Of a DNA stretch of 64,000 bases, positions 8,124-60,598 are shown piece by piece. Made by a program: the position numbers and the translations under genes. The notes beneath the pieces are model-generated. The model saw only the letters and a program-made list of their open reading frames with translations, was not told where the DNA came from and ran no database searches. The first letter of the stretch is position 1, and the number at the start of each line of letters is the position of its first letter. Source of the stretch: Dehalococcoidia bacterium (GTDB lineage: Bacteria; Chloroflexota; Dehalococcoidia; Lucifugimonadales; Australimonadaceae); NCBI GenBank assembly GCA_022820645.1, contig JAJEFD010000006.1, forward strand, positions 79,537 through 143,536, written 5' to 3'.

Positions 8124-8218
8124 CGGCCATTCCTCGACTGCCACGTCTGCCACTGCGGCCCGCGGTTCGCGCCGCCAAGCGCGCAGGCACGCCTGCAACC
8201 GACCTCCTCGCGCGCAAA

Positions 8219-9391: not shown

Positions 9392-9405
9392 CCACGACTT
9401 GCCTC

Positions 9406-10715: not shown

Positions 10716-10745
10716 CATCATTCCCGCGAAGGCGGGAATCCAGAG
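10716..10745 (+). repeat. Family A palindromic repeat copy
   Basis: catcattcccgcgaaggcgggaatccagag. Same core as 2701..2730. Confidence 0.8.
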
Positions 10746-10900
10746 GTGCGCATAGCGCACACGGCCGCGCGGTGAGGGTGGCAAAGCACATGCCGCCGAC
10801 CAGTGACACGCGGCCCTTGCGCGGTTCCATGCGGCACGCAGACCATGCCGAAGAGGCGGACGCGCACTCGTAGGCACTCGTGAATGGATGCCCTGAGTGA

Positions 10901-10945
10901 TACCATATCTAGTGGGGAATCTATGGAAATCCACTAGATATGGGT
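10901..10945 (+). promoter_or_regulatory. Tandem NrdR-box-like operators
   Basis: taCCATATCTAGTGGg (10901-10916) and tCCACTAGATATGGgt (10930-10945) are exact 13-bp inverted copies with centres about 29 bp apart. They resemble the NrdR consensus acaCwAtATaTwGtgt and overlap the -35 of the nrdA promoter. Confidence 0.6.
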
Positions 10946-10973
10946 TGACGGGCGGCTATCGACGGCGCATACT
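10945..10973 (+). promoter_or_regulatory. Putative nrdAB promoter
   Basis: TTGACG-17 nt-CATACT, about 70 nt upstream of ATG 11042. Confidence 0.4.
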
Positions 10974-11041
10974 TGCCGTCCGTCGCACTGGAACGAGGGC
11001 AGTCAGACGCCGCTGGGAGGGCGGCTTCGGAGGCTTTTGAA

Positions 11042-13441: not shown

Positions 13442-13582
13442 GCAGGCCCCACCGGACGAGCCCGCCCTGCGGTCAGCGGCGCGGGCTCGTTCGCGACGAT
13501 ACGTCCGCACCCTGCAGGGACGTGCCGCTCCCGCAGGAGTGCAGCAGATGCGGCATACGCGAACAGAACACGGAGACACGCG

Positions 13583-14581
13583 ATGATCCTCGAACCAGGA
13601 CTCAACCTCACGCTCCGGCCCATGCGCTACCCGGACTTCTACGAGATGTACAAGAACGGGATACGCAACACGTGGACCGTCGACGAGGTTGACTGGTCGG
13701 ACGACATCAAGGATCTGACCGGGAAGCTCTCCCCACCGGAGCAGCACCTCATCCAGCGGCTCGTCGCGTTCTTCGCCACCGGCGACTCCATCGTCGCCAA
13801 TAACCTCGTGCTCAACCTCTACAAGCACATCAACGCGCCGGAGGCGCGCCTCTACCTCTCACGCCAGCTCTTCGAGGAGGCCCTCCACGTCCAGTTCTAC
13901 CTGACCCTCCTCGACACCTACATCCCGGACGTGGACGAGCGGCACGAGATGTTCCGCGCCATCGAGACCATCCCCTCCATCAAGCAGAAGGCCGACTTCT
14001 GCTTCAAATGGATCGACTCCATCCACGAGCTCGACACGCTGGACACGGACGAGCAGAAGCGCCAGTTCCTGCTGAACCTCATCTGCTTCGCCACCTGCAT
14101 CGAGGGGCTCTTCTTCTACGCCGCATTCGCCTACGTCTACTTCATGCGCTCCAAGGGGCTGCTGAACGGGCTGGCGTCCGGCACCAACTGGGTGTTCCGC
14201 GACGAGTCCGCACACATGGAGTTCGGACTGCAGGTCGTCCGCACGGCGCGCGAGGAGTACCCGCACCTGTTCGATGAGCGCATGGAGGAGCAGGTCACGC
14301 AGATGATCCAGGAGGCCGTCGACTGCGAGACGCAGTTCGCCGAGGACCTGCTGGAGGGCGGCGTCGCCGGTCTCACCGTGGTGGAGGTGCGCCAGTACCT
14401 CCAGTACGTCGCCGACCAGCGCCTCACCAACCTCGGCCTGCCGACCTACTTCGGCACGCGCAACCCGCTCACGTTCATGGAGCTGCAGGACGTGCAGGAG
14501 CTCTCCAACTTCTTCGAGCGCCGCGTCTCCGCCTACCAAGTCGCCGTCACCGGCCAGGTCGCCTTCAACGAAGAGTTCTAG
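13583..14581 (+). CDS. nrdB: Ribonucleoside-diphosphate reductase, small (beta) subunit
   Basis: Diiron/tyrosyl-radical R2 signature: FFATGDSIVANNL, EEALHVQFY, FYAAFAYVYF, RDESAHMEF. 332 aa, directly downstream of nrdA. Confidence 0.9.
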   Translation: MILEPGLNLTLRPMRYPDFYEMYKNGIRNTWTVDEVDWSDDIKDLTGKLSPPEQHLIQRLVAFFATGDSIVANNLVLNLYKHINAPEARLYLSRQLFEEALHVQFYLTLLDTYIPDVDERHEMFRAIETIPSIKQKADFCFKWIDSIHELDTLDTDEQKRQFLLNLICFATCIEGLFFYAAFAYVYFMRSKGLLNGLASGTNWVFRDESAHMEFGLQVVRTAREEYPHLFDERMEEQVTQMIQEAVDCETQFAEDLLEGGVAGLTVVEVRQYLQYVADQRLTNLGLPTYFGTRNPLTFMELQDVQELSNFFERRVSAYQVAVTGQVAFNEEF

Positions 14582-22597: not shown

Positions 22598-22603
22598 GCC
22601 GGA

Positions 22604-23971
22604 CTATGCTCGCTGTAGCCGCACCTCTTCGTAGCGGCGGTAGATCTCCAGTATCTGGTTCAGCGCGGGACTGTACCTGTCCATGTGGTAGTGGCTCAAC
22701 TTGAATCCTGCGTTGTCTCCCACCACGGCAGTCATGTCCCCCATCTCTGTCAGGCTCATCCGGTGGTCATCCTTCTCAGAGAATGCAGAGCGGGTGACCG
22801 GCCCCGGCAGTACGTTGACCGGCAGGTCTATCCGTTCATTCACAGCGGGGTCCCGGAACACGTTTATCGGGTCGCCGCCGTCCTGCACGATCTTCATCTG
22901 GTCCATCAGCAGTTTGCGGAACATGATGACGCCGCGGTCGGAGACGCCGAGGCGTTCGTTCTCGCGGTCGGCGATGGCTCCCTGGCTCCACCATGCCGCC
23001 AGGTCCTGCGCGAGGACGTAGTCGGCGATGGGGCGCCCCGCCTCATCGAACAGCGGATGCTCGAAGTAGGGTACGTAGTCCTGCTCCGGCACCTCCACGT
23101 CCGGCCCGGGGCAGTACGCCATGTAGTCCAGGTGCAGCGTGTGCTCGTCGTCCATCGGCACTCGTATCTGCAGCTCGCTGCGTATCTTCCCGCCGAGGCG
23201 GACGAAGTACGGGAACACGAGCGGGTGGCCTATCGTCCAGTCCGGTGTGTCTTCGGCTTCACCCTCACGGAGACGGTACTTCTGGATACCCCACTCGTTC
23301 ACTTCCCACTCCGTTTTCAGGTGGCGGACCTTGAACGAGTCTGCATGCTCCTGTGCGATCGCATCGTGCTCCGGATTGCCGGTGCCGCCGCCGCGGTCCA
23401 GAACGTGGTACTCGAACCACCAGCCGTGCGTGTACTCGGTGTGCGAGGTGTCGACCGAGTTCTCCATGCACTGGAGCCAGTTGGCGTTCAGCACGGAGGC
23501 GCCGACGTGCCGGTACGTGTTGTCCCAGACGAGCACGTCCCAGCGCGGGAGGAGCGGCACGGGCTCCGGGCCCAGGTAGGCGAATATCAGCCCGCCCAGC
23601 TCCTGCACCGGGTACGACTTGATGCGCACCTTCTCGTTGAAGTGCGAGCCTTCCGGCTCCGTCGGCTGGTCTACGCACTGGCCGTTCACGTCGTACATCC
23701 AGCCGTGATACATGCAGCGCAGACCCTCCTCGGTGGGGATCCCGATGGAGAGGTCGACGCGCCGGTGCGCGCAGCGCCGGTCCACGAGGCCGATCCTGCC
23801 GCTCTTGTCCTTGAAGAGCGTCAGATCCTCGCCGAGCAGACGCACGGATATGACGGGGTCGCGAAGCAGCCGTCCGTTGCTGGTGACAGGCCACCAGTAG
23901 CGGCGGAGCAGTTCGCCCATGGGCGTGCCCGCGCCGGTCTGCGTCAGCAGTACGTTCTCTTCCGCACGCAT
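22604..23971 (-). CDS. Rieske [2Fe-2S] non-heme-iron oxygenase, alpha subunit (phthalate-family, alpha-only type) - R0
   Basis: Rieske motif CAHRRVDLSIGIPTEEGLRCMYHGW, mononuclear-iron motif NSVDTSHTEYTH, strong RBS AAGGAGGAG. Confidence 0.85.
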   Translation of the reverse strand: MRAEENVLLTQTGAGTPMGELLRRYWWPVTSNGRLLRDPVISVRLLGEDLTLFKDKSGRIGLVDRRCAHRRVDLSIGIPTEEGLRCMYHGWMYDVNGQCVDQPTEPEGSHFNEKVRIKSYPVQELGGLIFAYLGPEPVPLLPRWDVLVWDNTYRHVGASVLNANWLQCMENSVDTSHTEYTHGWWFEYHVLDRGGGTGNPEHDAIAQEHADSFKVRHLKTEWEVNEWGIQKYRLREGEAEDTPDWTIGHPLVFPYFVRLGGKIRSELQIRVPMDDEHTLHLDYMAYCPGPDVEVPEQDYVPYFEHPLFDEAGRPIADYVLAQDLAAWWSQGAIADRENERLGVSDRGVIMFRKLLMDQMKIVQDGGDPINVFRDPAVNERIDLPVNVLPGPVTRSAFSEKDDHRMSLTEMGDMTAVVGDNAGFKLSHYHMDRYSPALNQILEIYRRYEEVRLQRA

Positions 23972-24012
23972 CGGTGCTCCTCCTTACGCAGGCGTCGCGC
24001 AGGCAGCGCGGC

Positions 24013-29973: not shown

Positions 29974-31068
29974 CTACAGCCCGTAGAGCGCCACGGAGTT
30001 GTCGACGAGCACCTTGCGCTTCGACTCCTCGCTGATGGTGTCGAGATTGCGGAAGGTTTCGATGGCGTCGACCTCGCTGGACGTGTCCGTGTGGCCGTAG
30101 TCCGTGCCGATGACGATGTTCTCGTCGCCGACGTAGTCGAACACGTACGGGAAGTCGTCGTCGGTCTGGGCGGAGACGTAGATGTTGTATTCCTTGAACG
30201 GGTTGTCCGGGTAGTACCAGCCGGCCTGCTTCGCGCGGCGGGAGGACTCGTGGATGATCCACGGCACCCACTGGCACGACGACTCGATGAAGCCCCAGCG
30301 CAGTTCGGGGTAGCGCTTCGGGACGTCGCTCAGGATGAGGCCGTTGCAGGCGTGGACGGTCGGCATCCGGAAGGTGGGCAGGCCGCCGCTGGGGTCGTAG
30401 GCGGACGCGATCGCGCTGACGTACGCCTCGTTCGCGTTCGCGATATGGATGGTCATCGCAAGGTCGTTCTCCTGCGCCGCCTCGAAGTACGGGAAGAAGT
30501 ACGGGTCGAGCATGAAGCGGTGCCCCTCGAACGGCTTCGTCACCACGCCCACCGCACCGTTCTCCTTCACCCACGGCATCCAGTCGATGGCGGTGTCGAG
30601 GTCAGTCAGCGGGAGGACGGCGGCCCAGCGCAGGCGTCCGCCGGACTCCTTCCAGGCCTCGGCCATCCAGCGGTTCCACGCCTTGCAGAGGGCGCGGTCC
30701 ACTTCCGGGCGCTGCGACACGTCGCGGATCCAGAGCGTGTTATGGAGGATCTGGATGTCCACCCCGAGCCTGTCCATGTGCGCGAGGCGCAGCGAGATAT
30801 CGTCGAGGGAGCGTGCCTCCTCGGACGTGACGAGGTCGCGCCCGGCGCGCTCGGACATCGCCTTCAATTCGCGCTCGACCGGCGACGCGGGGCGGAGCCC
30901 TGCGATGCGTCCGTCGATCACCCAGTAGCGGCTCGCGGGCCTCTCCGGGTTCGTGAAGAGGAACGGGCGGAACTGCTTGTCCGCCTCGTCGAGGTAGTCC
31001 CACGTCTGCTCGCTCTCGATGACGTGCGCGTCCGCGTCGATAGCCTTGTACTTCACCGCCGTGGTCAT
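29974..31068 (-). CDS. Amidohydrolase-2 (ACMSD-like metal-dependent hydrolase/decarboxylase) family protein
   Basis: Start at MTTAVKYKAIDADAHV (RBS AAGGAG). HxH-type N-terminal metal motif (DADAHV); MTIHIANA; C-terminal GTDYGHTD. Confidence 0.75.
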   Translation of the reverse strand: MTTAVKYKAIDADAHVIESEQTWDYLDEADKQFRPFLFTNPERPASRYWVIDGRIAGLRPASPVERELKAMSERAGRDLVTSEEARSLDDISLRLAHMDRLGVDIQILHNTLWIRDVSQRPEVDRALCKAWNRWMAEAWKESGGRLRWAAVLPLTDLDTAIDWMPWVKENGAVGVVTKPFEGHRFMLDPYFFPYFEAAQENDLAMTIHIANANEAYVSAIASAYDPSGGLPTFRMPTVHACNGLILSDVPKRYPELRWGFIESSCQWVPWIIHESSRRAKQAGWYYPDNPFKEYNIYVSAQTDDDFPYVFDYVGDENIVIGTDYGHTDTSSEVDAIETFRNLDTISEESKRKVLVDNSVALYGL

Positions 31069-31199
31069 GTCCTCACTCCTTTGGCGTATCGCTGCCTTCA
31101 GAACGCCCGTAGTATCCCGCACCCACGCCCCGCTGACAACAGCGCCCTTACTCCGTCGTCCCGCCTACCCCAGCCGCAGCGAAGTTTCCGGGGGAAACG

Positions 31200-39748: not shown

Positions 39749-40915
39749 CTACCCGCTGATCCCCGCGCCTGCGGGGACAGGCAGGCCGTAGAGCTTGGTG
39801 GTGCCCTTCCAGAGGATGCGCGATTTCTGTTCGTCGCTGAGGTCGGGGCGGTTGTAGATGTAGCGCGGCGAGTCCGGCACCCGGTGCGCGTGGGGGATGT
39901 CGCTCGCGTACACCCAGCAGTCCGTCCCGTACTTGTTCACCATGTAGGGCAGCAGGTCGTCGTCGACCTCGAAGCCGATGAAGATGCGGCCATCCCTGAT
40001 GTACTCCAGCGGCGTCGCCTCCGGCAGACCGCGCTCCACGATGGCCTTGTGCTCGGAGCGTATCGTGCCGAGCTCCAGCCGGTCCTTCACGTTGTCGAGC
40101 GTGAAGTCCATCACGGCGACGGCGAAGTCCACCCAGGTGCAGCCCGTCTCGAGGAACGACACCTTCACCTTCGGGTAGCGGTCGAGGATGCCGGAGCCGC
40201 AGATCGTCTTGAAGCCGCGCACCACCGACATGAGGAACTGGTCGCCCGCGATGTTGCGGTAGGTCTTCATCGCGTCGCGCGCGCCGGTGCCGGGGTGCAC
40301 GTTCACCGGCATCTCGAGGTCCTGCGCCGCGGCCCAGAAGCACTCGAGACTGGGGTGGTCCAGCGCCTTGTCGGAGTAGTCGCCGAACACCATCACGCCG
40401 ACCGAGCCCATCTTCTTCGTGCGTTCCATCTCGCGGACGGCCTCGGCGGGGTCGCGCGGGTCGATCGCCGTCACCCACTTCAGCCGGTCGGGCGACTGGT
40501 TGGAGACGTCGGCGACCCAGCTGTTGTAGGAGCGGGTGAGGGCGGCGTTCAGCGCCGGATCGCTGGCGATGGGCCAGCTCAAGAGCAGCGTGGGGTAGTT
40601 GACGGAGAGGTACGTGTTCTCCGCGTCCATCACCGCGAGCCGCGCCTCGGCGGAGTGGAACTCGCCGCTCTCGTGCGGGCCGCGCCACTTCGCCATCTTC
40701 TCGTACTCGGTGGAGACGACGCCGTCCTTGCTGGAGGGCGAGCCGCCGATGCGGATGCGCTCGCCGTCGATCTCCCAGATGAAGTCGTGCTCGAACTCGC
40801 CGGTCTCGACCACCTTCGGGCGGCGATCGCGGAACCCGGGCTCCAGGTAGTCGTCGGACCAGGTGGCCTCCCACTCCTCGACGTGCCCGTCGCCGTCCAC
40901 CGCCAGGATGTCCAT
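39749..40915 (-). CDS. Amidohydrolase-2 family protein
   Basis: Start at MDILAVDGDGHV (RBS GAGGAG). Further blocks VNVHPGTG and ASDIPHAH. Confidence 0.7.
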   Translation of the reverse strand: MDILAVDGDGHVEEWEATWSDDYLEPGFRDRRPKVVETGEFEHDFIWEIDGERIRIGGSPSSKDGVVSTEYEKMAKWRGPHESGEFHSAEARLAVMDAENTYLSVNYPTLLLSWPIASDPALNAALTRSYNSWVADVSNQSPDRLKWVTAIDPRDPAEAVREMERTKKMGSVGVMVFGDYSDKALDHPSLECFWAAAQDLEMPVNVHPGTGARDAMKTYRNIAGDQFLMSVVRGFKTICGSGILDRYPKVKVSFLETGCTWVDFAVAVMDFTLDNVKDRLELGTIRSEHKAIVERGLPEATPLEYIRDGRIFIGFEVDDDLLPYMVNKYGTDCWVYASDIPHAHRVPDSPRYIYNRPDLSDEQKSRILWKGTTKLYGLPVPAGAGISG

Positions 40916-41038
40916 CGCCCCTGCTCCTCGTTCCAAGATGGCGCAATCCTACCACGCGAGAGGGTGCCCGGCGCGCCCTACCCCTGTGCCACGGTATCTA
41001 GTAGAGTCCTTCCTGATACCAGCAGGAGGACCAGAACA

Positions 41039-48766: not shown

Positions 48767-49867
48767 ATGGCGCGACGTTTCACCTACGACGACTGGATGG
48801 AGTCCCAGGGCATCCCCATCCACCGGGGCTACTACGTGGAAGACCTCCGCACCGCCGAGCTCGGCTGGTGGGAGGACCGCCAGGTGGACGCCGCGTTCAT
48901 GCAGTTGCGCGGCATGGAGGGCGTGGTCGAGGGCCGCATCGAGGAGATACCGCCGGGACACACGCTCCCACCGCTGAAACTCTCCGTCGACGAGCAGGTC
49001 TACGTCCTCGGCGGACGCGGTGTCGCCACCGTCTGGACGGACGACGTCCGCCCGAAGAAGACGTTCGAGTGGGCGACGCGCAGCCTCTTCCTCGTGCCGC
49101 GCAACTCGTACTGCCAGTTGACGAACATGGACGGCAACAACCCGGCGCGGCTGCTCCACTACAACTACCTCCCCATCGCCATGTCCGCCACACCGGACCC
49201 GGACTTCTTCGTCAACAACCCGTACTCCACCAACTCCTTCCTGCACAGCACGGAGGAGTTCTACTCCGAGGCGAAGGCCGTCATGGAGGAGGGCGAGGGC
49301 GCCTTCGCCGGACGCGGACGGCAGGTGTGGCACGGCAACTTCTTCCCGGACATGGCCGCCTGGGACAAGCTCGTCCCGTTCTGGGGGCGCGGCGCCGGCG
49401 GACACGTCGTCTTCATCCAGTCGCCCGGGTCGGAGATGCACGCGCACATGTCCGTCTTCCCCGCCCGCACCTACAAGAAGGGCCACCGCCACGGGCCGGG
49501 GCGCGTCATCGTCATCCCCGGCGGCGAGGGCTACTCCGTCATGTGGGAGGAGGGGAAGGAGAAGATCGTCATTCACTGGCACGAGGCGAGTTGCTTCGTA
49601 CCCCCGGACCGCTGGTTCCACCAGCACTTCAACCTCGGCCGGGCCGACGGGCGCTACCTCGCGCTCCATCCGCCGAACCAGTTCATGGGCATGTCCGAGA
49701 AGGTCACCGACCGCGGCCGCGACCAGATCGAGTACCCGAACGAGGACCCGTGGATACGCGAGTACTTCGAGAGCCAGCTGGCCGAGCGCGGCATGACGTC
49801 CGAGATACCGGCGGAAGCCTATGAGGACCCCACCTACGAGTGGGACTACTCGAAGTCCGCGGGCTGA
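48767..49867 (+). CDS. Bicupin protein, gentisate-1,2-dioxygenase-like (3-His site only in the C-terminal cupin) - cupin 1
   Basis: C-terminal barrel: YKKGHRHGPGRVIVIPGGEGYS...CFVPPDRWFHQHFNLG (HxH...H). The N-terminal barrel has G..YVLGGRG...LFLVPRN but no His ligands. RBS GGAGG. Confidence 0.7.
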   Translation: MARRFTYDDWMESQGIPIHRGYYVEDLRTAELGWWEDRQVDAAFMQLRGMEGVVEGRIEEIPPGHTLPPLKLSVDEQVYVLGGRGVATVWTDDVRPKKTFEWATRSLFLVPRNSYCQLTNMDGNNPARLLHYNYLPIAMSATPDPDFFVNNPYSTNSFLHSTEEFYSEAKAVMEEGEGAFAGRGRQVWHGNFFPDMAAWDKLVPFWGRGAGGHVVFIQSPGSEMHAHMSVFPARTYKKGHRHGPGRVIVIPGGEGYSVMWEEGKEKIVIHWHEASCFVPPDRWFHQHFNLGRADGRYLALHPPNQFMGMSEKVTDRGRDQIEYPNEDPWIREYFESQLAERGMTSEIPAEAYEDPTYEWDYSKSAG

Positions 49868-49963: not shown

Positions 49964-51487
49964 ATGCACGACGACGACGATCTCGACCATTCACACGTAT
50001 TCGACCTGCTGAACGACGAGGAAGCCGAGGATATCGAGGGGATCGAGAAGTTCACGCTCTACAGCGTGGGCATAGACATCGGCTCCTCCACCACCCACAC
50101 CATCTTCTCCCGGCTGGTGCTTCGCCGCGAGGGCGCCGGGCTCTCCGCCAAGTTCGTCGTCACCAACCGCGACGTGCTCTACCGCTCGCCCATCATGCTC
50201 ACGCCCTACTCCTCCGGCACCGCCATCGACACGGACAGCGTGCAGGAGTTCATCGAGCGCTCCTACAGCGAGGCGGGTTTCACGCCGGACGACGTTGACA
50301 CCGGCGCGGTCGTCATCACGGGCGAGGCGCTCAAGAAGGAGAACGCGCAGCCCATCCTCGAGTACTTCTCCGAGGAGTCCGGGCGTTTCATCTGCGCGTC
50401 CGCAGGCCCGATGCACGAGGCGCTGCTGGCGGCGTTCGGCTCCGGCGCAGTCGCCATCTCCAAGAGCAATTCCAACACCGTGCTGGACGTGGACATGGGC
50501 GGCGGCACGACCAAGATATCCCTCATCCGCAACGGCGAGATCGCCCAGATGGTCGCCATCGAGGTCGGCGCGCGTCTCATCGCCTACGACGACGACATGA
50601 CCATCACCCGCGTCGAGCAGCCCGCCCGCACCATCCTCGGCTCACTCGGCCAGACGGTCGAGGTCGGCGAGAAGCTCACGGACGAGAAGCGCGAGCTGTT
50701 CGCCGCCAAGATGACCGACATCCTCTTCGACGCCATCAGCGGCGGCGAGATGGACCCGCTCACCGATTCGCTCCTGCTCACCGACAGCCTCGACATCGAC
50801 TCGCTGGAGGACGTCGACCACGTCGTCTTCTCCGGCGGCGTGTCCGAGTACGTGTACGACCGCACGAGCGAGTCGTACGGCGACATCGGCCCGTGGCTCG
50901 GTAAGAACGTGCGCGAGCGCTGTCAGCAGACGTTGCGTCCCGGCATGCTGGTGATGCCCGCCGAGGGCATCCGCGCCACCGTTATCGGCGCGGGCGAGTA
51001 CACCCTGCAGGCGAGCGGGAGCACCTCGTACATCTCCACGCACGACGTGCTTCCGGTGCGCGGCATACAGGTCGCTCGGGCGTTCATTAACAAGGAGCAG
51101 ACCGCGGAAGAGATGGAGGCTGCGCTGGCGACAGGCGTCGGCAAGTACGACCTGGCGAAGCTGCCATCCACCATGGCGCTCGCCATGTCCATAGCCGGAC
51201 AGCCGGACTACTGGTACATCCGGCGCCTGGCAGAATCCATCGTCAAGACCGTGGACGACGAGCCCCCGGAAGCTCCGGTCTTCGTCGTCGTGGACGTGGA
51301 CGTGGCCAAGTCGCTCGGCGGCATCATCCGCGAGGAGTTGCACCTGGACCGGGCCGTCATCGCGATAGACGGCATCGAGGTGGGTGACCTGGACTACGTG
51401 GACGTGGGCAAGCCGATGGGCGCGAGCGAGGTCATCCCCGTCACCGTCAAGTCGCTCGTATTCTCCATCCGCTCGCAGTCCGGATAG
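49964..51487 (+). CDS. EutA-family ASKHA ATPase (homologue of the ethanolamine ammonia-lyase reactivating factor) with an acidic/His-rich N-terminal tail - EutA-like 1
   Basis: Collinear with E. coli EutA as I recall it: VGIDIGSSTTH, VDTGAVVITGEALKKENA, ICASAGPMHEALLAAFGSGA, VLDVDMGGGTTK, VFSGGVSEYVY, IRATVIGAGEYTLQASGSTS, VIPVTVKSLVF. Confidence 0.8.
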   Translation: MHDDDDLDHSHVFDLLNDEEAEDIEGIEKFTLYSVGIDIGSSTTHTIFSRLVLRREGAGLSAKFVVTNRDVLYRSPIMLTPYSSGTAIDTDSVQEFIERSYSEAGFTPDDVDTGAVVITGEALKKENAQPILEYFSEESGRFICASAGPMHEALLAAFGSGAVAISKSNSNTVLDVDMGGGTTKISLIRNGEIAQMVAIEVGARLIAYDDDMTITRVEQPARTILGSLGQTVEVGEKLTDEKRELFAAKMTDILFDAISGGEMDPLTDSLLLTDSLDIDSLEDVDHVVFSGGVSEYVYDRTSESYGDIGPWLGKNVRERCQQTLRPGMLVMPAEGIRATVIGAGEYTLQASGSTSYISTHDVLPVRGIQVARAFINKEQTAEEMEAALATGVGKYDLAKLPSTMALAMSIAGQPDYWYIRRLAESIVKTVDDEPPEAPVFVVVDVDVAKSLGGIIREELHLDRAVIAIDGIEVGDLDYVDVGKPMGASEVIPVTVKSLVFSIRSQSG

Positions 51488-51511: not shown

Positions 51512-51835
51512 ATGCTCATCGCGGCACTCGTCTTTGGACTCCTGGGCGGGGTCGTCGGCCTCTTCATCGGGACGCTCGTATTCATCGGCGATCTGGTGGA
51601 CTTCGCGTTCCGCGGGGGAGATACCAACACCGCCGGACTGCTGGTGCTGTTCTTCGCCCTCCTGGCCATCGCGGGCTCGATCATGTCCCTCAAGAAACCG
51701 TGGCAGGCTGCGGCGCTCCTGCTCGTCTCCGGCATCGGCCCCATGATCGTCGTCAACATATTCGGAGCGCCCATCTTTTTCCTCACGCTCCTTGCGGCCT
51801 TCTCGGCTGTACGCGGACGCCGCGAGATCCGCTAG
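51512..51835 (+). CDS. Small 4-TM membrane protein
   Basis: 107 aa, almost entirely hydrophobic (LIAALVFGLLGGVVGLFIGTLVFIG, LLVLFFALLAIAGSI, AALLLVSGIGPMIVV, IFFLTLLAAF). Starts 24 nt after EutA-like 1. Confidence 0.55.
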   Translation: MLIAALVFGLLGGVVGLFIGTLVFIGDLVDFAFRGGDTNTAGLLVLFFALLAIAGSIMSLKKPWQAAALLLVSGIGPMIVVNIFGAPIFFLTLLAAFSAVRGRREIR

Positions 51836-54702: not shown

Positions 54703-55626
54703 TTAGCGCGCGCCTGCGAAGAACAGCTCGTCGGCCGTGAAGCGGCGGCTGATGATGCCGAGATCGGCGGCGTACCGCACGATCGTCTCGATGGCGCGGC
54801 GGTTGTTCTCCAGCCCGTTCTCGTGCGGGAAGAGGCCGTGCTCGCGCAGCCAGCCCACCTTCAGCGCCATGTGCTCATCGTCGTCCGAGACGTTGGCGTA
54901 GTAAAGGCGGCGCGCTTCGTTGCAGGCGTCGACGACGGCCTGCCCGAGACCAGGGTTGGCGTCGAGCACATCGCTCTTCGCCACGAGCATGACGTTGACC
55001 GGAAAGACGCCGCTCTGCCGGTGGTAGGTGAGCGCCGCGTCGAGCGGGTCCTCGAACAGCCGGGCGCGATTGCCGTCCAGCGGAGGGCCTCCGCGGTCGA
55101 ACAACACGGCGTCCAGCTCGCCGCTTTCCAATTCCGCGACCTGGTCGCCGCCCTTCGCTATGCTGAAACGCGGGTCGCGGGGGTAGTCGACGCTCATCAG
55201 CGAGTTCGGCTCCGCCTCCACCCACTGCACCTTCGTCAGGTCGAGGCCGTACACGTCCGCGAGCGCGCCGCGCATCCACGTGCCGGGGTTGAACCCCCAG
55301 CCGCGCACGCCCACACGTTTGCCCTCGAGGTCCTTCGGCCCGCGGATGCCAGCGTTCACGTTCACCTGCGCCCCGACGTGTGCGAACGACACGTCCGGGA
55401 AGACAGGGATGCCCATCACCGGACACCCGATGTCCCGCGCGATGAGGTAGTTGGTGATGGGCACCACCATGATGTCGTAGGGCGGCTCGGTGAACAGCTT
55501 GCCGTAGACCGAGCCCGAGCCTCCCTCCGGCCAGTCGGTCTCAACGTCGAAGCCCTCCACCTTCACCGTGCCGTTCGCCAGGTACTCGGCGGCGTACTCG
55601 TGGTCCGCCATCAGCGTTATCGCCAT
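54703..55626 (-). CDS. Second 4,5-dihydroxyphthalate-decarboxylase-like / NMT1-type PBP-fold protein (no signal peptide)
   Basis: GIPVFPDVSFAH...DLEGKRVGVRGWGFNPGTWMRGALADVYGL parallels the 24013..25005 protein. More divergent. Confidence 0.5.
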   Translation of the reverse strand: MAITLMADHEYAAEYLANGTVKVEGFDVETDWPEGGSGSVYGKLFTEPPYDIMVVPITNYLIARDIGCPVMGIPVFPDVSFAHVGAQVNVNAGIRGPKDLEGKRVGVRGWGFNPGTWMRGALADVYGLDLTKVQWVEAEPNSLMSVDYPRDPRFSIAKGGDQVAELESGELDAVLFDRGGPPLDGNRARLFEDPLDAALTYHRQSGVFPVNVMLVAKSDVLDANPGLGQAVVDACNEARRLYYANVSDDDEHMALKVGWLREHGLFPHENGLENNRRAIETIVRYAADLGIISRRFTADELFFAGAR

Positions 55627-55632
55627 ATCGTC

Positions 55633-57282
55633 TTACTCCGGGATGGGGTAGCCGTCTGAGCGGCGGTCGGTGCCGCCGGTGTGGACGCCCCGTTCGTGGT
55701 CTATGCCTATGAGCTGTACCGCGCCGGGCGTGCCGACGCTGGGATAGGTCCTGATCTTGTGGCCCTTCGCCTCCAACGCCCGCAGCGTCTCCTCCGGGAA
55801 ACCGTCCTCGAGGCGGAGCACCATCTCCTCGTCTATCGTGCGCGGGTCGGTGCCGGGGAAGTGCGTCCAGCGCGGTGCGTCGGCCGCTTCCTGCACGTTC
55901 ATCCCGTGGTCGATCACGTTGGACACCGCCTGCGCGTTCCACTGCGGCTGGTTGTCGCCGCCCGGCGTCCCGCCGACGAGCACAGGCTTGTCGTCCTTGA
56001 ACACCATGTAGGCGTGGATCGTGTTGATCGTCTTCTTGCCGGGGGCGATGACGTTCACGTGGCCCTCGTCCAGGTAGAAGCCGCGTCCCGCACGGTCGTT
56101 GAAAAGGATGCCGGTATCTCCGGCCACGAAGCCGCTGCCCCAGTACGCCGAGAGGCTGTGGATGAACGAGACCGCGTTCCCTTCCTTGTCGATGACGTTG
56201 AAGTACGACGTGCTCGGCGTGGGCGCGGCGGAGTGCGCGAGTTCGCCCGCTGGCACGATGCCCTCGGCGGCGCGCTCCGGGTCGATGCTCTTGATGCGCT
56301 GGGCGGCGTACTCCGGCGACAGCAGTTCGTCCAGCGGCACGTCGATGAACTCCGGGTCGCCGACATACGCGAGACGGTCGGCGAACGCCAGCCGCTTCGC
56401 CTCGACCATCGTGTGGACGCTCTCGATAGTGTTGTGGCCCATCGCCGCGAGGTCGAAGCCGTCCAGCAGGCTCAGCAGCTCCAGCGTGAGCATGCCCTGC
56501 GAGGGCAGACCGGTCGCGTAGACCGTGTGGCCGTGGAAGCGCGCGGAGGGCGGGTTCTCGTAGACCAGCGTCTCCTGCCCGGCGAGGTCGGCTTCATCGA
56601 TGAGGCCGCCACCGTCCTCCATCGCCTGCGCTATCTGCCTGGCGATCGTGCCGAGGTAGAACTCGTCCGGCCCGTGCTCCGCGATGCGCCGCAGCGACCG
56701 CGCAAGGTTCGGCTGAGCGAATACGTCGCCCACCTGGTACGCGGAGCCGTCAGGCTTGATGTACGTCTTCGCGGTCGACTCGTACTTGGCGATCTTGTCG
56801 TAGTGGTCGCTGAAGTAGCTGGCGGAGCGCGGCGGCAGCGAGAAACCCTCGGACGCGAGGCTGATGGCCGGGTCGATGAGCGATGCCAACGAGCGCGTCC
56901 CGAACCGGTCGACGATCGTCTGCCATGCGCGCACCTCGCCGGGAACGGCGGGCGTCAGCGGGCCGTCGGCCGGCATCTTCACGTAACCCAGGTCAGTGAA
57001 GTATTCCCGCCGCGCGCGCATCGGCGCCTTGCCGGAGCCGGAGACGCCGTAGAGCGTACCGGACGCGGCGTGGTAGAGGAGGGCGAACACCTCGCCACCG
57101 ATGCCGCACATCATGGGCAGCGTCACGGCTTCCGCCGCCGCGACGGCGACTGCAGCGTCGAACGCGTTCCCTCCCTCGCGCATCACATGCGCTCCCACAG
57201 CGCCTGCCAGCGGCGAGGCGGAGCCGACCAGTCCACGCGTCGTGTATACGGGGCTATGCGACCTGTTGATGACGCTGCTCAC
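55633..57282 (-). CDS. ggt: Gamma-glutamyltranspeptidase-family Ntn hydrolase, apparently without a signal peptide
   Basis: ASPLAGAVGAHVMREGGNAFDAAVA, MCGIGGEVFALLY, a catalytic-Thr region PSTSYFNVIDKEGNAV, and GGTPGGDNQPQ. GTG start (MSSVINRSHSP). The upstream 440 codons of the track ORF are antisense to cupin 2. Confidence 0.8.
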   Translation of the reverse strand: MSSVINRSHSPVYTTRGLVGSASPLAGAVGAHVMREGGNAFDAAVAVAAAEAVTLPMMCGIGGEVFALLYHAASGTLYGVSGSGKAPMRARREYFTDLGYVKMPADGPLTPAVPGEVRAWQTIVDRFGTRSLASLIDPAISLASEGFSLPPRSASYFSDHYDKIAKYESTAKTYIKPDGSAYQVGDVFAQPNLARSLRRIAEHGPDEFYLGTIARQIAQAMEDGGGLIDEADLAGQETLVYENPPSARFHGHTVYATGLPSQGMLTLELLSLLDGFDLAAMGHNTIESVHTMVEAKRLAFADRLAYVGDPEFIDVPLDELLSPEYAAQRIKSIDPERAAEGIVPAGELAHSAAPTPSTSYFNVIDKEGNAVSFIHSLSAYWGSGFVAGDTGILFNDRAGRGFYLDEGHVNVIAPGKKTINTIHAYMVFKDDKPVLVGGTPGGDNQPQWNAQAVSNVIDHGMNVQEAADAPRWTHFPGTDPRTIDEEMVLRLEDGFPEETLRALEAKGHKIRTYPSVGTPGAVQLIGIDHERGVHTGGTDRRSDGYPIPE

Positions 57283-57393
57283 GATGACACACCTCTCTCG
57301 CACGAGTATCCGGGCAGCGGCATGATATGCTCCGCATCTGCCACCGGCAAACCTACCGCGCTCTGGCGCGCCACAGAAACAGGGAGGAACACC

Positions 57394-58485
57394 ATGGCCG
57401 AGGACTTCACCTATGACCGCTGGATGAACAGCCAGGGGATACCTGTACACCGCGGCTACTACATCGAGGATCTGCGCAACATCGAACTCGGCCATTGGGG
57501 CCTGCGCGATTGCGACGCCGCCTTCATCCAACTGGAGGGGATGCCCGGCGTTGTGGAGGGGCGCGTGCAGGAAGTGCCACCCGGAGGTTCCATCAAGCCG
57601 TTCAAGCAAGCGATAGACGAGATGGTCTACGTCGCCAGCGGACAGGGCACGGCGTCCGTCTGGAGCGGCGACGGCGAGCCGCACACGTTCGAGTGGTCGC
57701 CGCGCAGCCTCTTCCTCATCCCGCGCAACTCGTGGGCGCAGTTCAACAACATGCAGGGCGACAGGCCCGCGCGCCTGCTGCACTACAACTACCTCCCCAT
57801 CGCAATGTCCGCCATCCCTAACCCGGACTTCTTCTTCAATAACCCCTTTGAGGAAGACGTGCTCAGTGGGGAGGACTTCTACTCCGAGGCCGAGGCGACG
57901 ACCCAGGAGCACGTAGCCGAGGGCGCCGCGGGGCGCACGCTCTGGCTCGGCAACTTCTTCCCGGACATGGGCGTCTGGGACAAGCTGATGCACCGTCCCG
58001 GACGCGGCTCCCTGAACCGCTCCGTCTACATGCGCATACCAGGCTCGGAGCTGCGCGCGCACATGTCCGTCTTCCCAGCGGGGACGTACAAGAAAGGACA
58101 CCGCCACGGACCGGGACGCGTCATCGTCATTCCCGGCGGCGAGGGCTTCTCCATCATGTGGCAGGAGGGCCAGGAGAAGATCGTCATCCACTGGCACGAG
58201 GCGAGCTGCTTCGTGCCGCCGGACCGCTGGTTCCACCAGCACTTCAACCTCGGCGCCGCTCCCGGACGCTACCTCGCACTCCATCCGCCGAACCAGTTCA
58301 TGGGCATGTCCGAGTCGGTGCAAGACCTCTCGCGCGACCAAATTGAGTATCCCGACGAAGACCCGTGGATACGCGAGTATTTCGAGAGCCAGCTCGCCGA
58401 GCGGGGCATCGAGTCCCAGATGCCGGACGAGGCGTACCGCGACCGCAACTACCGCTGGGACTACACCGGCGTCAAGGAGAACTAG
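57394..58485 (+). CDS. Bicupin protein, paralogue of 48767..49867 - cupin 2
   Basis: MAEDFTYDRWMNSQGIPVHRGYYIEDL...YKKGHRHGPGRVIVIPGGEGFS...CFVPPDRWFHQHFNLG. RBS AGGGAGG. Start reassigned inside the track ORF 55681..58485. Confidence 0.75.
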   Translation: MAEDFTYDRWMNSQGIPVHRGYYIEDLRNIELGHWGLRDCDAAFIQLEGMPGVVEGRVQEVPPGGSIKPFKQAIDEMVYVASGQGTASVWSGDGEPHTFEWSPRSLFLIPRNSWAQFNNMQGDRPARLLHYNYLPIAMSAIPNPDFFFNNPFEEDVLSGEDFYSEAEATTQEHVAEGAAGRTLWLGNFFPDMGVWDKLMHRPGRGSLNRSVYMRIPGSELRAHMSVFPAGTYKKGHRHGPGRVIVIPGGEGFSIMWQEGQEKIVIHWHEASCFVPPDRWFHQHFNLGAAPGRYLALHPPNQFMGMSESVQDLSRDQIEYPDEDPWIREYFESQLAERGIESQMPDEAYRDRNYRWDYTGVKEN

Positions 58486-58534
58486 CGCCTCCCGCCCACC
58501 GCATAGACACCAGCCGAAAGGAAGACCAGCCCTC

Positions 58535-60097
58535 ATGCACGACGAGCCCTGGGCGCACGTCCACGATCCCGACGAAGAGCGCCTCGCCAAACTCACCATC
58601 GAACTGAACAACCCCGACCACGACTACTACCACTACGAGGTCATCGAACTCACGACGGTCGGCATCGACATCGGCTCCTCCACGTCGCACCTCATGTTCT
58701 CGAGCATCACGCTCCAGCGCGTGCAGGAGATGCACTCCAGCCGGTACGTCGTCGTGGACAGGCAGACGCTCTACAAGTCGCCCATCCTGCTCACCCCGTA
58801 CACGCATGACAACCTCATCAACACGGAGCAATTGCAACGGTTCGTCGCCGAGTCGTACGCGGAGGCAGGCTTCGAGCCGCAGGACGTCGACAGCGGCGCG
58901 ATCATCCTCACGGGCGAGGCGATCAAGCGGCGTAACGCCCACGCGATAGCCGACATCTTCGCCGACCAGGCGGGCAAGTTCGTCTGCGCCTCCGCGGGCC
59001 ACAACCTGGAGTCCGTGCTCGCAGCCAACGGGTCGGGCTCGGTGAAGCTGTCGCGCAACCCGCGCCAGACCGTACTGAACGTTGACATCGGCGGCGGCAC
59101 GACGAAGTTCGCGCTCGTCCACGGCGGACGCATCCAGCACACCGCTGCCCTCAACGTTGGCGGACGGCTAGTCGCCACGGACGACGACGGCAGGGTCACA
59201 CGCATCGAGGACGCGGCGCACACCGCCGCCGACAGCATCGCCGTGCCGCTCGCGCTCGGCGAACACCTGCCGGACGAGCACCGCACCGCCATCGCGGACG
59301 CGCTTGCGGAGTGCCTGTTGGACGTGATCCAGGGCCGCCCGCGCTCCGAGCTGACAGAGGCGCTGCTGCTGACCGCAGACATCCCGCTCGATGCCACCTT
59401 CGACGCGCTCGTCTTCTCCGGCGGCGTCTCCGAGTACGTCTACAACAACGAGACGCAGGAATTCGGCGACCTCGCGGTCGCACTCGCGGCCGCCGTCCGG
59501 CGCAAGATGGCGGAGCACGCGCTGCCCGCGCCGGTGCAGCCCGCAGCGGAGCGCATCCGCGCCACGGTCATCGGGGCGTCGCAGTTCACTGTGCAGTTGA
59601 GCGGGAACACGCTCTCCATATCGGACCCGTCGCTCCTCCCCTACCGGAACGTGCCTGTGCTCATCTCGCGGCTGCCGGAGGACCACGAGGTGCAGCCGGA
59701 GGAGGTCGCCGCGCTCGTTGGAGAAGCGTTCGAGCGGCAGGACCTCGTGGAGGGTGAGCAGCAGGTGGCGCTCGCGTTCGAGTGGGACGGCCTGCCGCGC
59801 TACGCGCAGATACGCAAGATAGCGGACGGCATCGCGTCGGCGGTGCCGCGCTCGCTGGCGAACGGCGCACCGCTCATGCTCGTCTTCACCGGCGACTTCG
59901 CCAAACTGGTGGGCGACACCATCACGAAGGACATGGGCATCCCGAACCCGGTCATCTCCATCGACAACCTCTTCCTGCAGGAGTTCGATTTCATCGATAT
60001 CGGGGAGATGATCTACCCGGCGCGGGTCGTGCCGGTAGTCGTGAAGTCGCTGCTCTTCCCGGAGATCGAGAAGCAGACCGCCGAAGTGCTGGACTGA
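58535..60097 (+). CDS. EutA-family ASKHA ATPase with a His/Asp-rich N-terminal tail - EutA-like 2
   Basis: VGIDIGSSTSH, VDSGAIILTGEAIKRRNA, VCASAGHNLESVLAANGSGS, VLNVDIGGGTTK, LNVGGRLVATDDDGRV, VFSGGVSEYVY, IRATVIGASQFTVQLSGNTL, VVPVVVKSLLFP. Start at MHDEPWAHVHD. Confidence 0.8.
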   Translation: MHDEPWAHVHDPDEERLAKLTIELNNPDHDYYHYEVIELTTVGIDIGSSTSHLMFSSITLQRVQEMHSSRYVVVDRQTLYKSPILLTPYTHDNLINTEQLQRFVAESYAEAGFEPQDVDSGAIILTGEAIKRRNAHAIADIFADQAGKFVCASAGHNLESVLAANGSGSVKLSRNPRQTVLNVDIGGGTTKFALVHGGRIQHTAALNVGGRLVATDDDGRVTRIEDAAHTAADSIAVPLALGEHLPDEHRTAIADALAECLLDVIQGRPRSELTEALLLTADIPLDATFDALVFSGGVSEYVYNNETQEFGDLAVALAAAVRRKMAEHALPAPVQPAAERIRATVIGASQFTVQLSGNTLSISDPSLLPYRNVPVLISRLPEDHEVQPEEVAALVGEAFERQDLVEGEQQVALAFEWDGLPRYAQIRKIADGIASAVPRSLANGAPLMLVFTGDFAKLVGDTITKDMGIPNPVISIDNLFLQEFDFIDIGEMIYPARVVPVVVKSLLFPEIEKQTAEVLD

Positions 60098-60136: not shown

Positions 60137-60598
60137 TCAGTCTTCGTCGTTCGATAGCGAGGCTTGTCCGGCTATCTCGGGACGGCGGAGCCGCCGATAG
60201 AGCGGTGACGTGAACCAAAGCCACAGCAGGGCGAATATGCCCAGCGCTATGCCGCCCCAGAAGAGCGCTGCCGCCAACTGCCCTCCCGGCGTCGGCCCCC
60301 TCCAGGTGCGCGACGGCTCAGCAGAGTCGAACGTGACCAGGACCTCATCGCCGTTCACGTAGTAGCCGATACATTCATCCGTGAGTCGTGAGAAGTTCTT
60401 GCACTCGGTCCACGCGGAGATCGTTACGGTCTGGCCTGCCTGCGTCGTATACGTCAGGCGGCTGTCTTCGTAGACCGCGACAGCCTGCTCCGTGCGGTCT
60501 GCCAGTTCTGCCACCTCGCCTAACAAGATCCACCCCGCGAAGATTGCTATCGCGGCCACGACGAGGCCGACGAAGGATATCCGCATGTTGATCTTCAT
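60137..60598 (-). CDS. Membrane protein, TM-beta domain-TM architecture (DUF3592-like?)
   Basis: N-terminal TM (ISFVGLVVAAIAIFAGWILLG), a soluble ~80-aa segment (YVNGDEVLVTFDSAEPSRTW), and a C-terminal TM (LFWGGIALGIFALLWLWF). Lower GC. Confidence 0.4.
   Translation of the reverse strand: MKINMRISFVGLVVAAIAIFAGWILLGEVAELADRTEQAVAVYEDSRLTYTTQAGQTVTISAWTECKNFSRLTDECIGYYVNGDEVLVTFDSAEPSRTWRGPTPGGQLAAALFWGGIALGIFALLWLWFTSPLYRRLRRPEIAGQASLSNDED

Follow-up and report, generated by a model that had tools for sequence, protein, structure and literature searches.

Two gene pairs, each a bicupin followed by a EutA-like ATPase, lie 6 kb apart and in identical gene order in the window, the whole 64-kb stretch of DNA that was analyzed. 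Judged by its gene trees, the second pair (cassette 2) is a hybrid that arose by partner swap and not a copy of the first (cassette 1). Functional coupling between cupin and ATPase is strongly supported by the recurrence of the pairing across phyla. Coordinates are those of the window:

48767-49867, plus strand: cupin1, a 366-aa type-I bicupin, sister paralog of cupin2
49964-51487, plus strand: EutA-like1, a 507-aa clade-A EutA-family ATPase with the tail MHDDDDLDHSH
54703-55626, minus strand: NMT1/THI5-like gene
55633-57282, minus strand: GGT (PF01019)
57283-57393, no strand: divergent intergenic region of 111 bp between GGT (minus) and cupin2 (plus)
57394-58485, plus strand: cupin2, a 363-aa type-I bicupin, with stop codon
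58084-58107, plus strand: cupin motif 1, codons for T231-Y-K-K-G-H236-R-H238, aligning to KAHRH of 3bu7
58234-58248, plus strand: cupin motif 2, codons for H281-Q-H283-F-N285, aligning to HEHCN of 3bu7
58486-58534, plus strand: spacer of 49 nt from cupin2 to EutA-like2, with the ribosome-binding sequence GAAAGGAAG
58535-60097, plus strand: EutA-like2, a 520-aa clade-B EutA-family ASKHA ATPase, with stop codon
58535-58645, plus strand: N-terminal tail of EutA-like2, 37 residues rich in His, Asp and Glu, MHDEPWAHVHDPDEE...DHDYYHYE

An earlier note on this DNA had described a second bicupin of 363 aa followed 49 nt later by a second EutA homologue of 520 aa, and this is the arrangement found in cassette 2. 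We looked for a terminator-like site or hairpin in the 49-nt spacer, and none was present. Cassette 2 is thus laid out as a predicted two-gene operon, and we infer co-transcription from this layout. In the 111-bp region on its other side lie the ribosome-binding site of cupin2, GGGAGG, and a single sigma-70-like match, which faces GGT. The contexts of the two cassettes differ, as had been noted: four Rieske/LigXa_C genes and one OCD gene lie upstream of cassette 1, whereas GGT and the NMT1/THI5-like gene are divergent from cassette 2. The module as such is found in catabolic islands rich in paralogs (Rieske, amidohydrolase, TctA, ABC), both in Dehalococcoidia/SAR202-like bacteria from the sea and from soil and in Binatia, which are thought to be degraders of recalcitrant organic matter.

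The two cupins are 68% identical over 364 columns (BLASTP) and share 42 of their first 60 residues, in line with the 70% estimated earlier for the N terminus. The near-identity reported around the metal site was also observed, with YKKGHRHGPGRVIVIPGGEG and CFVPPDRWFHQHFNLG unchanged between cupin1 and cupin2. There are indeed identical nucleotide runs of more than 35 nt, namely, two of 36 nt, one of them being the quoted ccggaccgctggttccaccagcacttcaacctcggc. However, a simulation with the codon usage of the window yielded equally long runs (P=0.12), as expected from conserved amino acids and the codon bias of the genome. Thus, these runs are uninformative beyond protein conservation, and we rejected gene conversion between the cupins. 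Over 488 columns, EutA-like1 and EutA-like2 share 41% identity and 61% similarity, so the earlier figure of roughly half of positions was slightly too high. The cassettes are no recent duplication, as the note had concluded. Ortholog dN/dS was 0.07-0.18 at low to moderate divergence for both genes of both cassettes (0.09-0.18 for the ATPases); only ortholog values were used because paralog dS is distorted by a codon bias of 93% GC3. All four genes are under purifying selection, and these values rule out a pseudogene in either pair, a condition that the earlier note had raised.

The same note had read cassette 2 as a diverged copy of cassette 1 with its pairing kept, that is, as the duplication of a whole unit in which the ATPase merely diverged faster. 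The shared gene order and 6-kb separation are consistent with this reading, as are the synteny of both cassettes in relatives down to about 70% identity (L003 and L005) and the overall correlation of cupin and ATPase distances (Mantel r=0.55, P=2e-4). However, the trees (neighbor joining only, with one outgroup and 200 bootstrap replicates) do not fit it. Cupin1 and cupin2 were sisters in 180/200 replicates, whereas EutA1 and EutA2 were sisters in 0/200 and fell into two deeply separated clades, EutA1 grouping with Binatia/'delta'/alpha sequences (200/200) and EutA2 with sequences from soil Chloroflexota (198/200). The mirror-tree comparison that the note had suggested for co-diversification was therefore discordant exactly at the node between cassettes 1 and 2. 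Faster divergence of the ATPase also fits poorly with the orthologs, which indicate equal rates: cupin and ATPase identities were nearly equal in all orthologous comparisons (82/80, 79.5/77, 58.5/55, and 50.5/50%), against 64/40% between the cassettes. Moreover, EutA2 shares 50% identity with those ATPases of other Chloroflexota whose partners are type-II cupins but 40% with EutA1. Clade-A ATPases usually accompany a type-I bicupin and clade-B ATPases a divergent type-II bicupin, clade B being large and mostly type-II associated; cassette 2 combines a clade-B ATPase with a type-I cupin. Finally, there was a mild excess of same-codon positions in the cupins (0.727 vs 0.657, P=0.005) and none in the ATPases, which fits a younger split of the cupins. 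We consider duplication of the whole unit improbable and favor a partner swap. Thus, the age of the cassettes, the selection on them, and the coupling of their genes stand, whereas the common history of cupin2 and EutA-like2 does not: the discordant trees indicate that these two genes have different histories, an outcome that the note had itself named as counting against its reading. That the pairing was re-established independently in cassette 2 makes the case for functional coupling stronger, not weaker.

The coupling was examined in two samples. In a sample chosen by cupin (79 genome loci and the window, with 95 assessable cupin genes), an EutA-like gene was directly adjacent on the same strand in 44/95 cases, 34 downstream and 10 upstream, and among 80 metagenome loci chosen by ATPase, a bicupin adjoined the EutA-like gene in 56 of the 73 that were assessable; many paired loci come from related MAGs, and these counts are not phylogenetically independent. 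Reverse look-ups gave the pairing again in two of three cases. Neighboring genes were assigned by ORF clustering, and the single-linkage cluster 0 still included merged antisense ORFs. The relatedness of the MAGs would favor an adjacency due to chance or to synteny alone, without a functional tie between the genes. However, pairs are found in either orientation, both ATPase clades and both cupin types take part, and the pairing extends across at least five phyla in otherwise unrelated neighborhoods (ATP synthase operon, ABC transporters, GGT/TctA). It was seen in Dehalococcoidia, other Chloroflexota, Binatia/'delta', Alphaproteobacteria, and Micromonospora. Chance adjacency is thus an explanation to which we give almost no weight, and the nonrandom recurrence of the pairing across phyla argues for the functional coupling that the earlier note had proposed.

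The exceptions to the pairing are informative about the role of the ATPase. No adjacent ATPase was present for 51/95 cupin genes, including about half of the type-I cupins, and at several loci one ATPase was flanked by two cupins (L009, L018, L024, L060, L061, and L080). These observations suggest that the role of the ATPase is accessory rather than obligate. On the Binatia chromosome OZ244621.1, one cupin is paired (L027) and at least three others of type I are not (L021 and L036), and locus L036 also holds a more divergent bicupin relative (38% identity). Where relatives of the ATPase have no cupin beside them, the neighbors are either UbiD and the Ni/Co permease NicO (PF03824, E=7e-11), in UbiD-ATPase-NicO operons, or an MBL-fold protein; the association with NicO was seen in a single lineage, on four similar contigs. 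We looked for metal transporters in the cupin-ATPase loci and found none.

To our knowledge, reactivation of a B12 enzyme is the only role described for EutA. Both ATPases align with the Pfam EutA model (PF06277) over its full length, with 427 and 421 bits over model positions 2-474/475 (E about 1e-126 to 1e-127). They share the ASKHA core and the C-terminal alpha/beta domain of EutA, and EutA-like2 retains intact phosphate motifs (GIDIGSST and DIGGGTT) and an intact SGGVSE motif. This full-length homology, together with public annotation that calls these proteins EutA, could mean that they do reactivate a cobalamin-dependent enzyme whose gene lies elsewhere, the cupin being a bystander or an EutQ-like accessory. 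However, tblastn with E. coli EutB and EutC gave no match in the window or in the 159 loci of the two samples (79 genome and 80 metagenome loci), nor was a eut operon found near the EutA-like genes there; their constant partner is the bicupin. The best scores against the NCBIfam EutA equivalogs NF007991-NF007994 were 350 and 369 bits, under cutoffs of 598-952, and identity to E. coli EutA (b2451) is 31-35%. The bicupin, with about 365 aa and two barrels, is also unlike EutQ, which is a small monocupin. Reactivation of a B12 enzyme is therefore highly improbable. What the EutA-like proteins may share with EutA is its presumed mode, that of restoring a partner enzyme as an accessory factor driven by ATP.

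A second difference from EutA lies at the N terminus. The EutA-like proteins begin with a tail of 35-65 aa that is conserved across both clades, is predicted to be disordered (AF2 pLDDT <50), lies outside all Pfam and NCBIfam EutA models, and is absent from E. coli EutA, which has 9 residues there. His makes up 10% of its residues but 2.1% of the remaining protein, and Asp plus Glu make up 27-30% compared with 13%. At least three tail His were present in 112/117 and 30/33 sequences; MHD opens 62/120 sequences, and conservation is 90% or higher at both H2 and H10. Acidic His-rich tails can serve other roles than the one we propose below. The M-H-(D/E) start recalls, as an analogy only, the N-terminal MHE motif through which HypA binds Ni (PMC5557546, PMC7055735).

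Searches of the PDB by sequence and profile found no EutA structure, and Foldseek with the AF2 model of the ATPase returned generic ASKHA matches only, with HgdC (1hux) among the top ones. The HgdC-type activators of 2-hydroxyacyl-CoA dehydratases and the RACo-type activators of corrinoid proteins are also ASKHA ATPases that use ATP to restore a partner's inactive metallo-cofactor. However, those proteins carry Fe-S clusters on conserved Cys, whereas C151 is the sole invariant Cys of the EutA-like ATPases, which makes ATP-coupled electron transfer unlikely. A different comparison is with the NTPases and helpers of metallocenter assembly (UreG/UreE, HypB/HypA, CooC/CooJ, and COG0523). As in those systems, a nucleotide-hydrolyzing accessory protein (here predicted) with a His-rich flexible segment is encoded beside a metalloenzyme client, and one EutA-like lineage has the adjacent NicO permease. 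Unlike them, the EutA-like proteins have the actin/Hsp70-like ASKHA fold and no P-loop of the G3E or MinD type, their client would be a cupin, and metal binding and transfer are proposals. The metallochaperone NTPases that we know of are G3E GTPases or Mrp/MinD-type ATPases, with no ASKHA precedent.

The conservation of the cupin points to its C-terminal domain as the presumed metal site. In motif 1, all 35 type-I and type-II bicupins compared share Y232, K233, K234, H236, and H238, and T231 and R237 are each present in 34/35; in motif 2, H281, Q282, H283, and N285 are invariant (35/35), and F284 is found in 33/35. H223 is likewise invariant in 35/35. By contrast, no His is invariant within residues 1-200, and the N-terminal cupin domain lacks a conserved His. 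The AF2 model (pLDDT 88) has two beta-barrels, and Foldseek matched it to generic bicupins (MncA, OxdC, and vicilins) with probability 1.0 but a TM of only about 0.45. PDB sequence and profile searches gave motif-level matches only, to gentisate 1,2-dioxygenase (3bu7, E=2e-4) and cPGI. A match to 8pjs, a designed repeat protein, was spurious, and matches of MdaB to cupin residues 263-335 (E about 0.004) are probably due to chance, as the fold is different.

Gentisate-type dioxygenases are bicupin, three-His Fe(II) ring-cleaving enzymes, and the cupin resembles the gentisate, salicylate, and 5-aminosalicylate 1,2-dioxygenases in being a bicupin of about 360 aa with an alignable HRH...HxHxN signature. 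Its genes are also often near Rieske hydroxylases or demethylases and aromatic-catabolic genes. However, the similarity stays at the level of motifs: scores against NF049978 (18.2 bits for type I, 20.9-41.8 for type II) do not reach the cutoff of 650, the match of the type-II N-terminal domain to 5-aminosalicylate dioxygenase (E=9e-11) is below cutoff, and the TM of about 0.45 applies to any solved bicupin. The catalytic HRH...H triad of those enzymes is N-terminal, whereas in cupin2 the HRH/HQH cluster belongs to the C-terminal barrel, and its counterpart in the alignment is the C-terminal domain of 3bu7 (KAHRH...WHEHCN). We know of no gentisate dioxygenase that needs an ATPase.

From these features we propose, with slightly less than an even chance of being right, that the module consists of a metal-dependent bicupin oxygenase and a dedicated ATP-driven chaperone for metal insertion or reactivation. 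The gentisate-dioxygenase-like His cluster of the C-terminal barrel (H236-R-H238...H281-Q-H283-x-N285, plus H223) would bind a metal that is most likely divalent, with Fe(II) as our default guess. The cupin would probably be an oxygenase or ring-cleaving enzyme, and candidate substrates are the hydroxylated or carboxylated products of the neighboring Rieske/LigXa_C oxygenases and other catabolic enzymes. The ATPase, with no role in the ethanolamine ammonia-lyase system, would most likely be an ATP-driven accessory factor, as EutA is for its B12 enzyme; it would interact physically with the cupin and load, exchange, or remove its metal, with the flexible His/Asp-rich tail as a putative metal-holding arm.

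It is also conceivable that the pair forms a two-component ATP-dependent enzyme, in which the ASKHA protein activates a small molecule, in a kinase-like manner or as in the hydantoinase/oxoprolinase/acetone-carboxylase type, and the cupin converts the intermediate. The tight operon and conserved pairing would fit, as would weak Pfam matches of EutA-like1 to Hydantoinase_A and BcrAD_BadFG; K233, K234, and R237, beside the His site, could bind phosphate or carboxylate. However, cupins that lack an adjacent ATPase and ATPases that can serve two cupins are not what would be expected of an obligate catalytic subunit, and the same ATPase clade pairs with the unrelated UbiD and MBL-fold enzymes. The best full-length match is to EutA, a protein-directed reactivase and no kinase, and it is not obvious what the conserved, disordered, His-rich tail would do in phosphorylating a small molecule. 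We consider a two-component enzyme unlikely and prefer the chaperone reading. Extended to the family, that reading would make the non-eut branch of EutA a hitherto unrecognized class of ATP-driven ASKHA chaperones for metal or cofactor exchange, which would mature or reactivate type-I and type-II bicupins, UbiD, and MBL-fold proteins by means of the His/Asp-rich arm, with the B12 reactivase as one specialized member of a wider family of ATPases for enzyme repair; this generalization is possible but rather doubtful.

Clustered at 90% identity, the relatives of EutA-like2 number more than 7,900 representatives and the bicupin family more than 3,600; at 50% identity, the bicupin family has 315 clusters with E<1e-30. 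We found no description of a cupin/EutA-like module in the literature, in which matches to 'EutA' were an unrelated ectoine-utilization EutA or noise. A large environmental branch of EutA is paired systematically with an uncharacterized and very conserved bicupin family and not with ethanolamine ammonia-lyase. If the ATPase matures or repairs the metal center of the cupin, it would be the first ASKHA-type metallochaperone, and this would be the first case of a cupin oxygenase served by its own ATP-dependent helper. If the non-eut chaperone class is real, the name 'EutA' would be wrong for thousands of proteins so annotated in aerobic environmental bacteria. Whatever the mechanism, the present findings correct a widespread misannotation.

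Translation and ORF listing confirmed that the second cassette consists of a gene for a 363-aa cupin and, after a 49-nt gap, one for a 520-aa EutA homologue, as an earlier note on this DNA had described. The genes of cassette 2 and its divergent neighbors are as follows.

57394-58485, plus strand, cupin2 (363 aa)
58535-60097, plus strand, EutA-like2 (520 aa), starting 49 nt past cupin2
55633-57282, minus strand, GGT, divergent from cupin2
54703-55626, minus strand, NMT1/THI5-like gene, divergent from cupin2

Each cassette 2 gene is preceded by a Shine-Dalgarno-like sequence, and we found no terminator-like hairpin between them. The contexts claimed for the two cassettes were also seen: cassette 1 (cupin1, 48767-49867, and EutA-like1, 49964-51487) is preceded by an OCD-family gene and a tandem array of four Rieske/LigXa_C genes, and cassette 2 is divergent from the GGT operon. 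TctA is downstream of cassette 2. A locus from a Dehalococcoidia MAG (L001) shares 97-99% protein identity with the window. Past the 3' end of EutA-like2 lies a convergent 153-aa ORF (60137-60598, minus strand), which is also conserved behind cassette 2 in five related loci; its only family match is a sub-threshold AmaP-like one. Directly 3' of EutA-like1 is a 107-aa ORF (51512-51835, plus strand) with a coding-like GC3 of 0.84 and no Pfam or NCBIfam match; it is conserved in close relatives only (L001 and L006) and has no cassette 2 counterpart. Elsewhere in the window are the following genes.

10949-14581, plus strand, class I ribonucleotide reductase large and small subunits
20390-22603, minus strand, second TctA transporter
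22604-23983, minus strand, fifth Rieske/LigXa_C oxygenase
29974-31164, Amidohydro_2 gene
39749-40948, Amidohydro_2 gene

The ribonucleotide reductase fits an aerobic lifestyle, and the extra Rieske/LigXa_C, TctA, and Amidohydro_2 genes belong to families that flank cupins in other genomes.

By BLASTP, the two cupins are 68% identical, and the two ATPases are 41% identical with 61% positives, so that the earlier estimate of a match at roughly half of positions was a little high for the ATPases. For the cupins the hand alignment was accurate: 42 of the first 60 residues match (about 70%), both quoted metal-site peptide blocks are the same in the two proteins, and the genes share two identical runs of 36 nt. 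These runs are uninformative: when we kept the observed protein alignment and redrew its codons according to codon usage in the window (GC3 ~0.93), 12% of simulations produced a run of 36 nt or longer. In both cassettes, ortholog dN/dS (window versus L007, L002, L003, and L008) fell between 0.07 and 0.15 for cupins and between 0.09 and 0.18 for ATPases. This is clear selection, and thus neither pair contains a pseudogene.

We then ran the mirror-tree test that the earlier note had proposed, asking whether the cupins and ATPases had co-diversified, as expected if cassette 2 were an old paralogous copy of cassette 1. From 79 genome loci fetched by cupin homology plus the window, we obtained 38 complete adjacent pairs and built neighbor-joining (NJ) trees with one outgroup, the ATPase tree being rooted on E. 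coli EutA. Across the whole set, cupin distances correlate with ATPase distances (Mantel r=0.55, P=2e-4), which is mostly shared vertical descent. At the node joining the two cassettes, the trees are discordant. The cupin1 and cupin2 lineages were sisters in 180/200 replicates (194/200 for the C-terminal half; the N-terminal half was ambiguous), whereas EutA-like1 and EutA-like2 were sisters in 0/200. Instead, cassette-1 ATPases group with those of Binatia, "delta," and Alphaproteobacteria in 200/200 NJ bootstraps, and in 198/200 the cassette-2 ATPases join those from soil Chloroflexota (L060, L061, and L066). The discordance is also visible in mean identities, independently of any tree.

Mean cupin/ATPase identity (%) within and between groups
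Within orthologous groups: 82/80, 79.5/77, 73/71, 83/77
Cassette 1 versus Binatia: 58.5/55
Cassette 2 versus the L060 group: 50.5/50
Cassette 1 versus cassette 2: 64/40

Same-codon use at identical residues was in excess in the cupins (0.727 versus 0.657 expected, P=0.005) but not in the ATPases; therefore, the common ancestor of the cupins is more recent than that of the ATPases.

A wider sample of 80 loci came from scanning metagenome contigs with the ATPase as bait, which favored clade B. We assigned each ATPase to clade A (EutA-like1-like) or clade B (EutA-like2-like) by its better match, and each neighbor by cupin type. Most adjacent bicupins in this sample were type II, only 30-38% identical to the type I proteins of the window. 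An upstream type-I cupin accompanied clade A in 23 cases. For clade B, type-II cupins were upstream in 39 cases and downstream in 10, and an upstream type-I cupin was limited to cassette-2 orthologs (14 cases). At the deepest level the families mirror each other, A with I and B with II. Cassette 2 departs from this scheme: its clade-B ATPase has acquired a type-I cupin that is a close relative of the cassette-1 cupin. This hybrid is old, since relatives that are only ~70% identical (L003 and L005) already have the two cassettes at a distance of 8-9 kb. In five loci (L060:6551-10651, L061, L100, L107, and L065), a single ATPase lies between both bicupin types, in the order type-II cupin, EutA-like gene, type-I cupin; such triplets may be the kind of intermediate behind the cassette-2 arrangement. 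The EutA-like gene is clade-A-like in L065 and clade B in the others.

Adjacency of the two genes is recurrent, and it has been re-formed, although the counts are not phylogenetically independent: an ATPase adjoined 44/95 assessable genes in the cupin-based sample (34 downstream, 10 upstream; none at 51/95), and a bicupin homolog directly adjoined the ATPase in 56/73 assessable loci of the ATPase-baited metagenome sample. In the type-I cupin tree, adjacent and nonadjacent genes fall in coherent clades (88/96 nearest-neighbor agreement), with several independent ATPase-adjacent clades. Unpaired type-I cupins most commonly lie directly 3' of a Rieske/LigXa_C gene, and locus L036 (~4800-11100) of Binatia chromosome OZ244621.1 carries three tandem Rieske/LigXa_C-cupin pairs with no EutA-like gene among them. 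The same chromosome (L021, L027, and L036) has a single paired type-I cupin, three or more unpaired ones, and a further bicupin relative that is more divergent. Other recurrent cupin neighbors are Amidohydro_2, ABC/SBP, and TctA transport genes, OCD, LigB, GFO/IDH/MocA, SDR, Mo-hydroxylase, and TPP enzymes. Cupin-ATPase-cupin triplets occur in L009, L011, L018, and L024; in L060, L061, and L065; and in L080. The pattern is that of a client family with a possibly shared helper, not of two obligate subunits. In Binatia/"delta" MAGs (L009, L011, L012, L013, L014, L018, L024, and L027), the module comes right after an F-type ATP synthase operon (alpha, gamma, beta, epsilon), which may be no more than conserved synteny.

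Members of the same ATPase clade also occur without a cupin; they are 45-53% identical to EutA-like2 and 32-37% to E. coli EutA. Tight operons of a UbiD-family decarboxylase, the ATPase, and NicO (L105:110-3944, also L102, L109, and L113) have an ATPase-NicO gap of ~10 nt, NicO matching a Ni/Co permease family (E=7e-11). Other cupin-less ATPases lie beside UbiD alone (L142 and L143) or an MBL-fold protein (L121, L150, L158, and L164). In the latter group (L158:3872-8100 and the other three), the EutA-like gene, whose product has an acidic His tail, precedes genes for MBL-fold (Lactamase_B_5), TPR, and 4Fe-4S ferredoxin-like proteins. The neighbors of cupin-less ATPases are all metal- or cofactor-dependent enzymes, and the UbiD-ATPase-NicO operon suggests that this non-eut clade serves non-cupin clients too and is linked to metal supply. 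The main rival reading, that the cupin and EutA-like protein form a two-component ATP-dependent enzyme, is unlikely in view of this variety of partner enzymes, the many unpaired cupins, and the ATPases shared between cupins.

Both EutA-like proteins cover Pfam EutA end to end. They are only 31-35% identical to E. coli EutA and score 350-369 bits against NCBIfam EutA equivalog cutoffs of 598-952. Neither the window nor the 159 loci from the cupin-based and ATPase-based scans contain an EutB or EutC homolog. The AF2 model (pLDDT 82) has an ASKHA core and a C-terminal alpha/beta domain; Foldseek returned Ppx/GppA, the HgdC activator, PilM, and MreB, and we found no EutA structure in the PDB copy searched. 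Matches to every canonical EutA model begin near residue 38 in EutA-like2 and near residue 31 in EutA-like1. In E. coli EutA, only nine residues precede the GIDIG motif; the tail of the cupin-associated proteins is 35-65 residues long.

N-terminal tails of EutA-like proteins
Cassette 2: MHDEPWAHVHDPDEE...DHDYYHYE
Cassette 1: MHDDDDLDHSH
Binatia: MHDDIYDHDHPD
Micromonospora: MSEHHHQGHHHDHGHHHHCHHDDHGHSH

The tail, predicted by AF2 to be disordered, is 10% His versus 2.1% in the remaining protein and 27-30% Asp+Glu versus 13%. At least three His were present in 112/117 and 30/33 sequences, 62/120 tails start with MHD, and conservation of H2 and H10 is at least 90% between clades whose identity is otherwise 40%. 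By analogy, the tail recalls metallochaperones, whose hallmarks include flexible His-rich stretches and, in HypA, an N-terminal M-H-E nickel site (PMC5557546, PMC7055735).

The cupins gave only a weak Pfam Cupin_2 match, in the N-terminal domain. The AF2 model (pLDDT 88) has two beta-barrels, and Foldseek found generic bicupins only (TM ~0.45). All 35 type-I and type-II sequences compared share H223, Y232-K-K, H236, H238, H281-Q-H283, N285, and W256/W267. Their N-terminal barrel has F99, E100, W101, N119, G83, and G85 in every sequence but no invariant His. The family profile aligns the C-terminal barrel to gentisate 1,2-dioxygenase 3bu7 ("...KAHRH...GQGYSI...WHEHCN," E=2e-4), and the N-terminal barrel of a type-II member matches 5-aminosalicylate 1,2-dioxygenase (E=9e-11, far below cutoff). 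Judged from these two alignments, the cupin is distantly related to the 3-His ring-cleaving bicupin dioxygenases; compared with them, it has its His cluster in the C-terminal barrel and lies outside the family by every cutoff. Residues 263-335 of cupin2 (58180-58400) show local similarity to the C-terminal part of three structures of the NADPH quinone reductase MdaB (E 0.004-0.012). The folds differ, and this unexplained similarity is probably chance.

We tentatively propose, as a reading that is quite possible, that the cupin is a metal-dependent oxygenase, probably Fe(II) and of the 3-His type, acting in catabolic pathways that Rieske oxygenases supply. Its ATP-driven maturation or reactivation factor would be the EutA-like protein, whose His/Asp-rich arm would deliver or exchange the cupin metal, by analogy with EutA, which carries out ATP-dependent exchange of damaged cobalamin. 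We found no description of the cupin/EutA-like module or of tailed EutA homologs in full-text literature searching; in public annotation, "EutA" is the name given to the ATPases and "cupin domain-containing protein" that given to the cupins. Both families are large, with >3,600 bicupin and >7,900 ATPase cluster representatives at 90% identity, and 315 bicupin clusters at 50% identity with E<1e-30. The module would represent an accessory NTPase with its metalloenzyme, or an EutA-type reactivase with a new client.
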